Shown: positions 7,516 through 64,000 of the stretch, piece after piece
How the letters are laid out: each line of letters begins with the position of its first letter
Position numbering within the stretch: position 1 is the first letter of the stretch
Assembly (NCBI GenBank): GCA_045636425.1
Contig: JAZTXM010000002.1
Span: 93,951-157,950, forward strand
Length of the DNA stretch: 64,000 bases
Source: Clostridia bacterium
GTDB lineage: Bacteria; Bacillota; Clostridia; UMGS1883
Direction of reading: 5' to 3'
Made by a program: the position numbers and the translations under genes
The notes under the pieces: model-generated
What the model saw: the letters and a program-made list of their open reading frames with translations, nothing else
The model's database searches: none
Told to the model about the DNA's origin: nothing

Positions 7516-7549
7516 TGTTCCTTACTGTAAAAAGCAATAAATTTTACTA

Positions 7550-32801: not shown

Positions 32802-33473
32802 ATGGCTGAAAGATACGGCGAAATTCCGAAAAAATTCACAAGTAAATGGTGGTCTTATTTCTGGACCTATTACAAATGGTGGGTAATTGTTCCTGCTGTG
32901 CTTATAGTAGCGGTAGTGTGTCTTTTAACTTCCATTTGGAAAATGGAGCGTTATGACGTGACGCTGACTTATGCAGGACCGCATTTTTTTCCGAATAATC
33001 ACGTGAAGCAAATTTCAGGGGAGCTTGGAGGGCTTTGCGAGGATGTAAATAAAGACGGAGAAAAGCTTCTGACTCTTGCAAACATGACTATTTCAGACAA
33101 GGAAATTGACCTTGAATACAAATCTTCCCTTTTGATATCCCTGCAATTCGCCTTGGAGGAAGAAGAAAAATACATCTTTATCATTCATAAGGATTTTGCC
33201 TCACGATATTTAGCACAGAATGAAAAAGGTTGCCGTTATGCACCTGCTAAAGAGTGGCTTACTGCCGATATAGGTTATAGCAAGGCACTGTCTGCACACG
33301 GCAATGACTACGGAATTTTACTTGATGAAAGCGATATTTTTAAGAAATGGAACTGCGACCTAAAGGACCATTATCTTCTTATAAGAAAAAAGCCCGCCGA
33401 TAAAGCGGAGCTTCCTGCATATAATGCGGCAATAGAGCTTGCAAACAAGCTGTTAGAACATAAGGGGATGTAA
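32802..33473 (+). CDS. Membrane-anchored hypothetical protein (single N-terminal TM), translationally coupled to atpC
   Basis: ATG 3 nt after the atpC stop. Hydrophobic WWSYFWTYYKWWVIVPAVLIVAVVCLL, then a soluble domain with no recognisable motif. Confidence 0.5.
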   Translation: MAERYGEIPKKFTSKWWSYFWTYYKWWVIVPAVLIVAVVCLLTSIWKMERYDVTLTYAGPHFFPNNHVKQISGELGGLCEDVNKDGEKLLTLANMTISDKEIDLEYKSSLLISLQFALEEEEKYIFIIHKDFASRYLAQNEKGCRYAPAKEWLTADIGYSKALSAHGNDYGILLDESDIFKKWNCDLKDHYLLIRKKPADKAELPAYNAAIELANKLLEHKGM

Positions 33474-33582
33474 AAAAGTCCAGATCGCAAAAAGGCAATT
33501 AGCATACAAAATAAAATGCTCGAAAAAACGACTGAACTTTATATTTTGGTTGAAAAATCTCATATTCTTCGATTTTTCTATG

Positions 33583-33686
33583 TTTCTAAGCCTTTTTGCT
33601 ACGAACAAACTTCGCCTCTCGACGTACCCACGTACGCCTTCGGGTAACCCACGGCAAGCCGTGGCTCAGTTTGTCCGTTCTGAATC
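33583..33686 (+). ncRNA. Candidate structured cis-regulatory RNA (unclassified). A closing helix (CGAACAAACT / AGTTTGTCCG) encloses two hairpins (CGTAC-CCAC-GTACG and CCACGGC-AA-GCCGTGG).
   Basis: Nested complementarity read directly from the sequence. Located in the 290-nt leader of the CDS at 33764-34486. No known riboswitch class recognised. Confidence 0.3.
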
Positions 33687-33703
33687 ATTTTTCCTATCCC
33701 CTA

Positions 33704-33750
33704 ATAAAAAGGAGGTGTAAAAAACCGAGTTTTTACACCTCCTTTAATAG
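33704..33750 (+). promoter_or_regulatory. Terminator/attenuator-like hairpin that sequesters an SD-like sequence (GGAGGTGTAAAAA-ACCGAG-TTTTTACACCTCC, then TTTAAT)
   Basis: 13-bp perfect stem 14 nt upstream of the downstream gene's own SD (AGGTGA). The weak U-tract suggests a regulatory rather than constitutive terminator. Confidence 0.4.
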
Positions 33751-33763
33751 TCAGGTGATTATT

Positions 33764-34486
33764 TTGAAATATCCTTATCTGCCCCACGAAAAAGCAACGG
33801 TGTTTATAGCCGATGTTCATATAGACGATGCCACTGTTATCACTCCTCCCGAAATTCCCGTTTTGCCCGAGGGGCTTATTCGTCATGCGGATTTGGGAAT
33901 ATGCATTGTTTCCCCCAAAAAGGCGGTATGTCCGCCCGAAAGTTGTGCATACTATAGGGAAAAGCTCTCCCCCTACGGATTTGAGGTCATTTCAGGAAAA
34001 TCACATATCGGCAGTAACTACCCAAGCGACAGTGCATATAATGTTGGTATAGTCGGAAAAAAATGTTTTTTAAACAAAAGTGTATGCGATGAGCATTTAT
34101 ATGAAATACTTATCAGCGAGGGTTACGAAATAATAAATGTGAAGCAGGGATATACAAAATGCTCCATATGCCCCGTAGATGAAAATAGCTTTATAACAGG
34201 CGATAAAGGGATTGCCTCCGCAGGAGATAATGCAGGGATGGATGTTCTTTTAATATCCAATGACAATATTTCTTTGCCCGGCTATTCAAACGGATTTTTC
34301 GGAGGCTCCACAGGCATGGGAGCAAAGGATGAGCTTCTTGTAAACGGCGACATTTCCACGCTCCCCGACCACGACAGGATAAAGGAATTTTTAGAAGAAA
34401 GAAAAATCCGCATAAAAAGCATCAAGGAAGGAGAAGTAAGGGATATAGGCTCCATTATACCTTTGATAGCATCAAACGAAAGCTAA
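33764..34486 (+). CDS. Hypothetical protein (about 240 aa), family not recognised
   Basis: Probable TTG start (LKYPYLPHEK...) with AGGTGA upstream; no in-frame ATG upstream. Coding-like composition. C-terminal motifs GYSNGFFGGSTGMGAKDELLVNGD. Confidence 0.45.
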   Translation: MKYPYLPHEKATVFIADVHIDDATVITPPEIPVLPEGLIRHADLGICIVSPKKAVCPPESCAYYREKLSPYGFEVISGKSHIGSNYPSDSAYNVGIVGKKCFLNKSVCDEHLYEILISEGYEIINVKQGYTKCSICPVDENSFITGDKGIASAGDNAGMDVLLISNDNISLPGYSNGFFGGSTGMGAKDELLVNGDISTLPDHDRIKEFLEERKIRIKSIKEGEVRDIGSIIPLIASNES

Positions 34487-54903: not shown

Positions 54904-55000
54904 AAATATTTCCCCTCCTTTGATTTGTAATTTAAAACTAGCTATTATATTATTTTACACCATATAGAAAAATATTTCAACCGGTAAAAGAAGGTTTTTT

Positions 55001-55039
55001 AATAAACAAAGGATGCAAAAAATGCATCCTTTGTTTATT
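55001..55039. terminator. Perfect 17-bp palindrome terminator (AATAAACAAAGGATGCA-AAAAA-TGCATCCTTTGTTTATT)
   Basis: Palindrome overlapping the EamA stop codon. Confidence 0.6.
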
Positions 55040-55910
55040 ATTCACTTTGTCGGCTCAATATAAATACCGCACTCAAAATTAGTGTTATGCCCACGGCAGG
55101 AAGCTTCAATAGTTTCTCTCCGAGAAATGCCACGCTTAATAAAGTAGCCGACATAGGCTCTAAAATCGCAAGCGAGGATGCTGTTCCCGCAGGAATTGTC
55201 TTAAGTGCGGAAGAATAGCACAAATAGGGCATCACGCTTGTACACAGCCCCAAAAGCAGTGTAAGAGGTATTGTATAGCCCATATTTTTGGCTATGTATA
55301 GAGGAATCTGTCCTATATCTGCTGTCAATGCCCCTACGGCTACAGCAAATAAAAATCCATATAAATTTGCCGTTACGGGGTTAATTCCCTTTTTCATCTG
55401 TATTTTTGTAAGAATGTTATATGCACTGTAGCAAAGTCCTGACAATAGCCCGAAGACGATTCCCACAACATCGAATCTGAAGCCGCCTATTATACCCGAA
55501 ACCAGAGAGCATCCTAAAAGCATAAATCCCACACAGAAAGCTTTCACCTTTGTAAGCTTTTCTCCCAAGAACAAAACCGAGTACATCATAACAAAAATCG
55601 GTGCCGTGTACATAAGCACAACGGCTGTGGATACAGAGCTTTTTACCATTGAATAAAAATAGCAGCTTGCCGTACCGAAAAATGCAAGACCGCTTCCCAT
55701 TGTTAAAAGCAAATGGAAAAATGAAATTTTAAAAAGTCTTCTATCGCAGAGCAGAACATATAAAAGCATGGAAGCAAGCATTGCCAGCGAGCGGATAAAT
55801 GTCAGATGCAGGGAGGTAAATCCCAAAGGGGTCAGACAATCCACAAAAATGCCCGAGGTTCCCCAACCTATACTTGCGGCAACAATACATGTAAGTGCCG
55901 TTTTTTTCAT
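55038..55910 (-). CDS. EamA/DMT-family transporter
   Basis: 290 aa with about ten hydrophobic helices in two repeated halves. Confidence 0.7.
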   Translation of the reverse strand: MKKTALTCIVAASIGWGTSGIFVDCLTPLGFTSLHLTFIRSLAMLASMLLYVLLCDRRLFKISFFHLLLTMGSGLAFFGTASCYFYSMVKSSVSTAVVLMYTAPIFVMMYSVLFLGEKLTKVKAFCVGFMLLGCSLVSGIIGGFRFDVVGIVFGLLSGLCYSAYNILTKIQMKKGINPVTANLYGFLFAVAVGALTADIGQIPLYIAKNMGYTIPLTLLLGLCTSVMPYLCYSSALKTIPAGTASSLAILEPMSATLLSVAFLGEKLLKLPAVGITLILSAVFILSRQSE

Positions 55911-59010: not shown

Positions 59011-59056
59011 GAAAAAAGACAATACAGTTTTTACAAAAACTGTATTGTCTTTTTTA
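59011..59056. terminator. Bidirectional terminator (AAGACAATACAGTTTTT-ACAA-AAACTGTATTGTCTT + T6)
   Basis: 17-bp perfect stem. Confidence 0.8.
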
Positions 59057-62506: not shown

Positions 62507-62516
62507 AAACTATATT

Positions 62517-62560
62517 AAAAAAGCAAAACAGGTGTGACGGTCACACCTGTTTTGCTTTTT
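62517..62560 (+). terminator. Intrinsic terminator after upp
   Basis: AAAAGCAAAACAGGTGTGAC-G-GTCACACCTGTTTTGCTTTTTT. Confidence 0.85.
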
Positions 62561-62587
62561 TAATATAATAAATAGTGGAGGTGTTAT

Positions 62588-63391
62588 ATGGATAACTATG
62601 TCTTTATGGCACTGCTTGCAACCCTCGGCACATGGTTTGTAACTGCACTGGGGGCGGCGACGGTTGCCTTTTTCAAATCTCCTAATCCTAAAATTTTAAA
62701 TCTGATGCTGGGATTTGCATCAGGGGTTATGATAGCGGCAAGCTTCTGGTCACTTCTTCAGCCTGCCATAGAACGGGCGGAGGCTATTTCTGCCTTGCCT
62801 TCCTATTTTGTTGCAACAACAGGCTTTTTGCTGGGAGCCATTTTCATGTGGCTTTCCGACAAAGCCGTTTCTTTCGCAAGAAAAAAAGCCGATAATGCTC
62901 AGGGAGAAACAAGTGAGAAGCTTAATCGCATTATCATGCTTATTCTTTCAATTACATTACACAATATCCCCGAAGGGCTGGCAGTGGGGGTTGCCTTTGG
63001 TGCATTGGGAAGCGGAAACTTCAGTACAGAGGCACTTATGGGCGCAATCACAATTGCAGTCGGTATAGGACTGCAAAATTTTCCCGAAGGGGCGGCGGTT
63101 TCTCTGCCACTTCGGAGAGAGGGCTATTCAAGAAAGAAGTGCTTTCTATGCGGTCAGGCATCGGGAATGGTGGAGCCATTTGCAGGGGTTTTGGGTGCCT
63201 GCCTGGTGGTATACATGGAAAAAATTTTACCCTATGCTCTTTCATTTGCCGCAGGCGCCATGATTTTAGTTGCTGTGCATGAGCTTATCCCTGAATGTCA
63301 GCGAGAAAGAAAATGCCACCCCTATTTTTCCACAATGGGAATTATATCGGGCTTTGCGGTGATGATGCTCCTTGATGTGATGCTGGGTTAA
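62588..63391 (+). CDS. ZIP-family metal (zinc) transporter
   Basis: 267 aa. HNIPEGLAVG and HELIPE metal-binding TM motifs. Confidence 0.85.
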   Translation: MDNYVFMALLATLGTWFVTALGAATVAFFKSPNPKILNLMLGFASGVMIAASFWSLLQPAIERAEAISALPSYFVATTGFLLGAIFMWLSDKAVSFARKKADNAQGETSEKLNRIIMLILSITLHNIPEGLAVGVAFGALGSGNFSTEALMGAITIAVGIGLQNFPEGAAVSLPLRREGYSRKKCFLCGQASGMVEPFAGVLGACLVVYMEKILPYALSFAAGAMILVAVHELIPECQRERKCHPYFSTMGIISGFAVMMLLDVMLG

Positions 63392-63419
63392 AATTAAGGC
63401 GTAAAAAAGCTGAGCTTTT

Positions 63420-64000
63420 TTACGCCTTAATTTTAACCCATGTATTGGGAACAGGAGCTTCGATAATTATATCTTCACCCGTAAGCGGATGGGGAAAGCT
63501 TATTTTTCTGCAATGAAGGCACATAAATTCTTCGTTTGAATTTCCGTACAGGCTATCACCATATATGGGACAGCCCATATGGTTCATATGCACTCTTAGC
63601 TGATGTGTTCTGCCTGTAATGGGAATAAGTCTTACCAAAGAATATTTTCCGTCCGTATTTAAAACCTCGTATTTTGTATTGGCTTCTTTTCCGGAAGATG
63701 AAACAATTCGCCGCATGGAGTTTTCTTCTTTCTTTATGGGCACATTTATCTCGCCCACGGACGCACTGAGAGACCCCTTTACAACCGCAATATATTCCTT
63801 TTGAATTTCCTTTCGCTTCATCAAATCCGTCAGAAGTGCCGCTGCATGCGAGTTTTTTGCCGCAAGCAGCACACCTGTGGTATCTTTGTCAAGACGGGTT
63901 ATTATGTGCCCCGCATAGCCCATGTAATATTTCAGTGCATTTGCCAAAGTATCATTCTGATGCAGGCGTGAGGGATGCGACGGCATGGCGAAGGGCTTAT
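63420..64000 (-). CDS. RluA-family pseudouridine synthase (partial; N-terminus lies beyond the window end)
   Basis: RLDKDTTGVLL catalytic Asp motif and HQLRVH. The ORF is open to the window edge. Confidence 0.7.
   Translation of the reverse strand, partial: KPFAMPSHPSRLHQNDTLANALKYYMGYAGHIITRLDKDTTGVLLAAKNSHAAALLTDLMKRKEIQKEYIAVVKGSLSASVGEINVPIKKEENSMRRIVSSSGKEANTKYEVLNTDGKYSLVRLIPITGRTHQLRVHMNHMGCPIYGDSLYGNSNEEFMCLHCRKISFPHPLTGEDIIIEAPVPNTWVKIKA

Follow-up and report, generated by a model that had tools for sequence, protein, structure and literature searches.

The analyzed stretch, referred to below as the window, comprises 64 kb of DNA from a Clostridia bacterium (contig JAZTXM010000002.1), and all coordinates without a locus name are window positions. 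An open reading frame (ORF) without a Pfam match is located there as the last gene after atpA-G-D-C. It is followed by a structured RNA element which spans positions 33464-33745 (+), approximately 285 bases including its own terminator, and then by a gene at 33764 that encodes a DUF6873 protein and precedes a YtxC-like gene. A preliminary description of this region had regarded the RNA as a candidate cis-regulatory leader of the gene at 33764. The window copy is best read as one member of an uncurated structured RNA family which is dispersed in Oscillospiraceae-type gut Clostridia. It is conserved as a unit, its helices covary, and it occurs at many loci after unrelated co-oriented genes, patchily between relatives and with a terminator of its own.

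The left edge of the element was located at exactly 33464 (GGGGATGT...), the position at which the alignment with the two genomic homologues L014 and L017 begins. Conservation between the window, L014 and L017 continues through the terminator hairpin, and the flanks on both sides are unrelated. The start at 33540 given in the preliminary description therefore has to be moved 76 nt upstream, and the helices P0 and Pb had been missed. On the plus strand the segment 33540-33763 folds with a z-score of -5.2. A value of -7.9 was obtained for 33460-33750 from the single-sequence minimum free energy (MFE) fold, and in both cases no shuffled sequence folded as well. The MFE fold reproduces the comparative structure, including the P0 helix. 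The overall architecture consists of a long rod (P0, P0b and P1), a dispensable variable arm (Pb) and a Y-shaped end junction (P2 and P3). In the MFE fold, Pb and P1 are carried by a three-way junction above P0b. The interior of this structure had been recognized correctly before: the closing helix with its single A.C mismatch (P1, now 11 pairs) encloses two hairpins, namely the stem with the GTAC core and the hairpin CCACGG-CAAG-CCGTGG. The 8-bp hairpin formed by GAAAAATC (33552-33559) and GATTTTTC (33571-33578) exists as well. It caps the variable Pb arm and is not the separate upstream feature for which it had been taken. The features of the locus are summarized in Table 1.

Table 1: Features of the RNA element and of its surroundings in the window.
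Feature	Position	Strand	Sequence, pairing and remarks
P0, 5' strand (A)	33464-33477	+	GGGGAUGUAAAAAA; pairs with 33687-33701; small internal loop
P0b, 5' strand	33481-33484	+	CAGA; 4 bp with UCUG at 33679-33682; A-U pair replaced by G-C in four sequences
Pb, 5' strand	33487-33496	+	GCAAAAAGGC; pairs with 33590-33599, 10/10 complementary
Variable arm inside Pb	33497-33589	+	tip is the 8-bp hairpin 33552-59/33571-78; length and sequence vary
Pb, 3' strand	33590-33599	+	GCCUUUUUGC; assigned from complementarity and covariation
P1, 5' strand (closing helix)	33601-33611	+	11 pairs with 33668-33678; one A.C at 33604/33675
Conserved core	33612-33648	+	J1/2 (UUCGCCUCU), P2 hairpin, J2/3 ending in UAAC
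P2 hairpin (GTAC core)	33623-27, 33632-36	+	CGUAC, loop CCAC, GUACG
P3 hairpin	33649-33664	+	CCACGG-CAAG-CCGUGG; arms 33649-54 and 33659-64; hypervariable, fully compensated
P1, 3' strand	33668-33678	+	pairs with 33601-33611
P0b, 3' strand	33679-33682	+	UCUG; pairs with 33481-33484
P0, 3' strand (A-prime, A')	33687-33701	+	AUUUUUCCUAUCCCC; C-rich; pairs with 33464-33477
Terminator hairpin (A2/A2-prime, A2')	33708-33745	+	16-bp perfect stem 33708-33723/33730-33745; 6-nt loop
Upstream ORF	32802-33473	+	223 aa; no Pfam match; last gene after atpA-G-D-C
Ribosome-binding site and start of the DUF6873 gene	33753-33766	+	Shine-Dalgarno (SD) sequence AGGTGA, TTG start; context, outside the element

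Homologues were collected by scanning metagenome contigs with a 20-mer of the core (33609-33628). This yielded 20 loci, 19 of which contain the whole element. The remaining one (L021) was a chance match of the 20-mer in a high-GC contig and was discarded. Together with L014 and L017 the set comprised 19 metagenomic and two genomic homologues, all of them derived from metagenome-assembled genomes or metagenomes. The invariance of 33609-33628 among L022-L040 is given by construction, as this segment served as the search pattern.

Covariation was evaluated in an alignment of 16 full copies from which the variable arm had been removed (A3), with 500 column shuffles and with partners slid by 1-3 columns as controls. 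In this alignment 92.8% of the cells of the structure were paired compared to 81.6% in the column shuffles. Changes on both sides were observed for 24 of the 48 pairs versus 12.7 in the shuffles, and 0 of the 500 shuffles was as good. With slid partners no more than 48% of the cells were paired. P1, P0 and P0b each showed compensatory changes. For P0, the pairs of strands were GGAAAU/AUUUCC in L029, GAGGAC/GUCCUC in L040 and GGUGAU/AUCACC in L026. In P1 five pairs change on both sides, and the A.C mismatch is kept in 13 of the 16 sequences. All ten pairs of Pb change on both sides, with 100% of the cells paired. Variation is almost absent from P2 and the junction strands, which consequently carry no covariation information. 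P3 was found in 19 sequences as a stem of 4-14 bp with almost any sequence, and five of its six pairs changed on both sides. Thus, the conserved structured RNA postulated in the preliminary description is supported by strong covariation in the homologues. Conservation peaks in the interior core and not at the termini.

Two copies from different loci of one metagenome (L024:1688-1908 and L034:1-217) are 96% identical, yet their P3 hairpins are wholly different and both fully paired. This exchange suggests either recombination between copies or a very fast turnover of the P3 hairpin.

With a covariance model built from A3, a divergent mini copy scoring 37 bits was detected in the dnaK-dnaJ intergenic region of L035. 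This mini copy (L035:8637-8811 with its own terminator) is devoid of Pb and has kept P0, P0b, P1, P2, P3 and the terminator. A full copy is located in the same contig after dnaJ, 1.2 kb downstream of the mini copy. The arm enclosed by Pb is reduced to a short loop in L032 and is absent from the mini copy (L035:8637-8763), and the length of the family members ranges from about 170 to 290 nt. Two copies each were found in L035 and in contig OLSB01001113.1 (L030 and L036). Five contigs end within the element; assemblies tend to break at repeats.

An intrinsic terminator hairpin usually follows the element. In the window it is preceded by an A-run and followed by a short U-run, and its 5' arm resembles the 5' strand of P0. 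A perfect hairpin with GGAGGTG/CACCTCC arms had been reported at this position. It is indeed present, with a stem of 16 bp instead of 13 bp, and the reported GTG-TAA was found inside its 5' arm. Its U-tract is weak, as had been noted (TTTAAT: UUU, then AAU), and the site was not listed by a consensus terminator scan. Among 12 homologous hairpins, seven are followed by a run of at least four T; such a run is missing in the window, L023, L036, L038 and L040. The stem is maintained across the homologues by full compensation (GGAGGUG/CACCUCC, GGGGUG/CACCCC, GGAGAUG/CAUCUCC and others), with stabilities of the homologous stems between -16 and -29 kcal/mol. From the compensated stem and the T-runs the hairpin appears to behave as a terminator across the homologues, in agreement with the preliminary description.

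The pairing between the strands of P0 and of the terminator was examined by calculating mean duplex energies over 12 loci in comparison to shuffled partners. For the 5' strand of P0 with its 3' strand (A x A') the value was -9.9 kcal/mol versus -6.4 kcal/mol for the shuffled partners, and for A with the 3' arm of the terminator (A2') it was -11.7 versus -5.3 ± 0.5 kcal/mol. Since both pairings clearly beat the shuffles, the terminator represents another hairpin of the P0 type, this time uninterrupted. Correspondingly, the covariance model scores the window terminator as a P0-only hairpin (19 bits). The ends of the element are inverted repeats (A versus A2'), which is also expected from two similar hairpins. 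The classical antiterminator pairing of the 3' strand of P0 with the 5' arm of the terminator reached -5.8 kcal/mol versus -5.5 ± 0.6 kcal/mol and was rejected, as it does not surpass the shuffled partners. The arrangement as an aptamer with an expression platform, proposed in the preliminary description, is therefore not supported, since a platform of this kind would require exactly this pairing. A possible long-range A:A2' antiterminator would have to outcompete the perfect local hairpin.

The relation of the element to the DUF6873 gene was assessed by comparison with 20 fetched loci encoding relatives of this protein. Three of them held only distant homologues (34-35% identity) and one of the remaining 17 (L015) was set aside due to its unrelated upstream region, which left 16 comparable loci. 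Only L014 and L017 (64-68% protein identity) possess the element, and 14 of the 16 loci do not. The four closest relatives (L001-L004, 82-93% protein identity) as well as L012 and L013, the sisters of L017 and L014, contain a short spacer and an unrelated plain terminator without the element. Because it is missing at 14 of 16 loci including those of the closest relatives, the element does not qualify as a leader conserved with the DUF6873 gene, and this part of the preliminary description is not supported. Filled and empty sites thus exist among close relatives (the window versus L001-L004, and L017 versus L012). The DNA of the element shows 82% identity between genomes in which the proteins encoded on either side share approximately 66%. 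In all 16 comparable loci the ribosome-binding site of the DUF6873 gene is immediately preceded by a terminator hairpin, and at the filled sites the element with its own hairpin stands in place of this native terminator hairpin. The stop of the upstream ORF (ATG TAA, 33468-33473) lies within the 5' strand of P0, so that the last codons of this ORF are taken from the 5' end of the element (33462-33473). The protein ends with ...LLEHKGM* in the window and, three residues earlier, with ...LLEQ* in the element-free relatives.

In L001-L014, L016 and L017 (about 20-90 nt upstream of DUF6873) and in the window (33708-33763) the terminator hairpin ends approximately 25 nt or less from the ribosome-binding site. 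No evident promoter was found between that hairpin and the DUF6873 start in the 16 loci. It seems that the DUF6873-YtxC pair relies either on read-through of the terminator or on an unrecognized promoter.

The different flanking contexts in which the element was encountered number at least 15. In 14 of 17 loci the gene upstream has the same orientation as the element (+), and in those 14 the gap between the stop codon of this gene and the element measures -10 to 43 nt, with eight gaps of 0-6 nt. A convergent gene comes next in 8 of the 12 distinct contexts. The flanking genes are functionally unrelated and encode, for example, an EAL/GGDEF protein, lysyl-tRNA synthetase, a SpoU methylase and GNAT acetyltransferases, and further DnaJ, serine dehydratase, DprA and YpeB. 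Occurrence after unrelated genes, together with the convergent downstream genes, speaks against the dedicated cis-regulation of the gene at 33764 that had been assumed. No transposase adjoins any copy among the flanking genes of the examined contexts. No consistent target-site duplication was detected; there were only chance matches of 2-6 nt at inconsistent positions in AT-rich flanks. Searches of phage and plasmid collections by blastn and three pattern scans of viral contigs gave no match. A conserved promoter before the element was not found either: the flanks are unrelated up to its first G, and only L028 shows a good site. At this locus, which is the sole copy with a plausible promoter of its own, a 13-bp perfect hairpin (L028:4348-4377) directly abuts the 5' end of the element.

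The whole window produced 0 matches to Rfam 15 at gathering thresholds, in agreement with the earlier statement that no riboswitch class is recognizable. When the region and eight homologous loci were scanned permissively against Rfam, only sub-threshold matches to microRNA-type hairpins and RsaE were obtained on the element. The weak matches to RsaE/RoxS (RF01820) in three members (17.5, 25.2 and 23.3 bits versus a gathering score of 79) arise because of the C-rich strand and the terminator. ARAGORN detected 0 tRNA or transfer-messenger RNA genes. A conserved small ORF or type I toxin was also considered and rejected, as the frames are broken by indels (a 16-nt versus a 15-nt P3, and the variable arm). 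No described equivalent was found in the literature, including the first 200 of the 408 supplementary files of a catalogue of structured RNAs from the human microbiome.

Riboswitches and attenuators may use an intrinsic terminator as expression platform, for example the purine and SAM-I OFF switches. Like these, the element is composed of a conserved multi-helix domain with a long closing helix, followed by a stem-loop and a U-run that is short in the window, and its covariation is of comparable quality. In contrast to them, it occupies the 3' ends of genes instead of leaders, is often followed by a convergent gene and has neighbors of unrelated function. Moreover, it has neither an above-chance antiterminator nor an Rfam class. 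The REP/BIME and ERIC repeats of enterobacteria, BOX and RUP of pneumococci and the Correia elements of Neisseria are dispersed, transcribed intergenic repeats that fold. The element shares with them its multi-locus intergenic distribution, usually at 3' ends or between operon genes, the formation of hairpins, the variable presence between close relatives and the inverted-repeat ends. It differs in its much greater complexity (two junctions, a core that is invariant and non-palindromic, and a hairpin that is hypervariable but compensated), in having its own terminator, in the lack of a target-site duplication and in a copy number that looks modest (one copy in the 64-kb window). With RsaE/RoxS it has in common a C-rich motif (UCCUAUCCCCU) shortly before the terminator. 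In contrast to RsaE/RoxS, this strand is engaged in the P0 helix, the length of the element is 2-3 times greater and a dedicated promoter is lacking. The clades also differ, with the element in Clostridia and RsaE/RoxS in Bacilli.

Taken together, we consider it about an even chance (a probability of roughly 0.5) that the element acts as a dispersed, terminator-linked RNA module of transcript 3' ends. According to this reading the upstream mRNA, in the window that of the atp operon and the 223-aa ORF, would carry the element as its 3' end. The element would act in cis: the terminator would end the transcript, and the closed multi-helix domain would protect or mark the 3' end thus formed. The element would be gained and lost in the manner of REP/BIME, ERIC or BOX-type intergenic repeats. 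In the window it would merely substitute for the ordinary terminator which the relatives have before the DUF6873 gene. Several observations weigh against this reading. A second copy in the 64-kb window was found neither by pattern nor by blastn nor by the covariance model with filters off; in the latter search only P0-like terminator hairpins scored, with at most 19 bits. No obvious terminator belongs to the full copies L033 and L037, and L032 is followed by a very weak hairpin (-3.5 kcal/mol). The upstream gene is divergent at three loci. One of these is L028, where a strong promoter-like site (TTGACT-17-TATAAT, 11/12 match) is located 66 nt upstream. Transcription of the plus strand is deduced only from gene orientation and terminator polarity, and the wobble counts are neutral as to the strand (19 G.U versus 26 A.C cells, 13 of the A.C cells at one conserved position). 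The set of homologues is biased to one subfamily, as all except L014, L017 and the mini copy were obtained via one exact 20-mer. Finally, the combination of a near-invariant core with a hypervariable compensated hairpin is seen more typically in RNAs that have a specific molecular partner than in passive stabilizers of 3' ends.

Among the alternatives, the domain closed by P0 may be part of a conditional terminator, which generalizes the idea of the preliminary description. It would sense a ligand, a protein or upstream translation and decide on the formation of the terminator, and would thereby control read-through into the next gene (DUF6873/ytxC, or dnaJ in L035) or antisense transcription of convergent genes. 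A covarying multi-helix domain directly precedes the terminator, as expected for such a device, and the terminator ends approximately 20 nt or less from the next SD sequence in 4 of 12 contexts and likewise in the mini copy of L035. The P0 5' strand resembles the 5' arm of the terminator and pairs well with the 3' arm, and the upstream stop is 0-8 nt away from P0 in most loci, so that a terminating ribosome could open P0. On the other hand, the classical antiterminator pairing does not surpass the shuffles, the A:A2' pairing spans about 260 nt and competes with a perfect local hairpin, and L033 and L037 have no obvious terminator. In addition, 8 of 12 downstream genes are convergent, a common gene function is not apparent and the relatives regulate the DUF6873 locus without the element. 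A conditional terminator is regarded as unlikely. A multicopy trans-acting small RNA (sRNA), either processed from a 3' untranslated region or made from its own promoter, appears equally doubtful. C-rich sRNAs of Firmicutes pair with G-rich ribosome-binding sites, and the invariant C/U-rich single strands of the element could act on such targets in the same way, with J1/2 (CGCCUCUCG) or, once P0 opens, the C-rich UCCUAUCCCC as proposed seeds. The own terminator, the invariant unpaired core and the several paralogous copies would fit an sRNA, as would the weak RsaE/RoxS matches over the C-rich strand and the terminator and the promoter-like site upstream of the L028 copy. These points are opposed by RsaE scores far under 79, by the lack of a conserved promoter and by flanks that are unrelated up to the first G. 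Furthermore, the C-rich strand is engaged in P0 with covariation, and the tight link to co-oriented stop codons is not expected of independent sRNA genes.

It is likewise improbable that the element is a selfish DNA repeat resembling miniature inverted-repeat transposable elements, the hairpins of which would serve only a transposase or recombinase acting in trans and would have no role as RNA. Such a repeat would explain the patchy occurrence at orthologous sites, the many unrelated contexts, the contig breaks inside the element, the two copies per contig, the inverted-repeat ends and the wobble counts that favor neither strand. It would not be expected to lack a target-site duplication, an adjoining transposase and matches in phage, plasmid and viral collections, or to be conserved most strongly in the interior core instead of the termini. 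The internal helices covary, P3 is replaced with full compensation between 96% identical copies, and the strong bias in orientation relative to the upstream gene (14/17) argues for selection at the level of the transcript. More speculatively, and with a similarly low probability, the element may represent a new functional RNA class with a specific partner. It would be either a genome-wide 'global attenuator', by which a single signal sets the formation of 3' ends or the read-through at the ends of many operons, or a non-autonomous mobile RNA/DNA cassette which specifically replaces intrinsic terminators. This possibility is raised because the core is invariant, A.C and G.U pairs are conserved, and P3 changes fast yet is always compensated.

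Conserved structured RNAs that reach this size and degree of covariation are seldom found, and Rfam 15 has no entry for the element. Its location at the 3' ends of genes is of interest, as 3'-end and 3'-untranslated-region elements of bacteria are far less explored than leaders. A multicopy, terminator-coupled fold in abundant gut Clostridia would offer a handle on how transcripts are ended, stabilized or punctuated, or on how cassettes move. For annotation it follows that a structured domain plus a terminator is insufficient to call a riboswitch.

The terminator and P0 also share the design of ordinary Rho-independent terminators of the same genomes with a GTAAAA...TTTTAC apex. Unlike such solo terminators, P0 holds about 210 nt of conserved structured RNA as its loop and is not followed by a U-run. 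The apex GTAAAA-N(3-14)-TTTTAC was found three times in the window (7527-7547, 33717-33736 and 63401-63423) versus 0.16 expected. The same apex occurs in solo terminators at L005:2961-2975, L006:4441-4461 and L008:2831-2845, those of L005 and L008 being located just upstream of DUF6873. These solo apex hairpins could be an independent type of terminator or footprints of the element. The window further contains four long perfect palindromes at 62511-62567, 63384-63440, 59012-59055 and 55000-55040, with stems of 27, 27, 20 and 18 bp, respectively, and loops of 3-5 nt, which look like bidirectional terminators. The palindrome at 63384-63440 carries the GTAAAAAA...TTTTTTAC apex common to the hairpins of the element. 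Independent of the element, a glycine riboswitch aptamer was detected at L037:701-813 (-) with 50 bits, which is above the gathering score.
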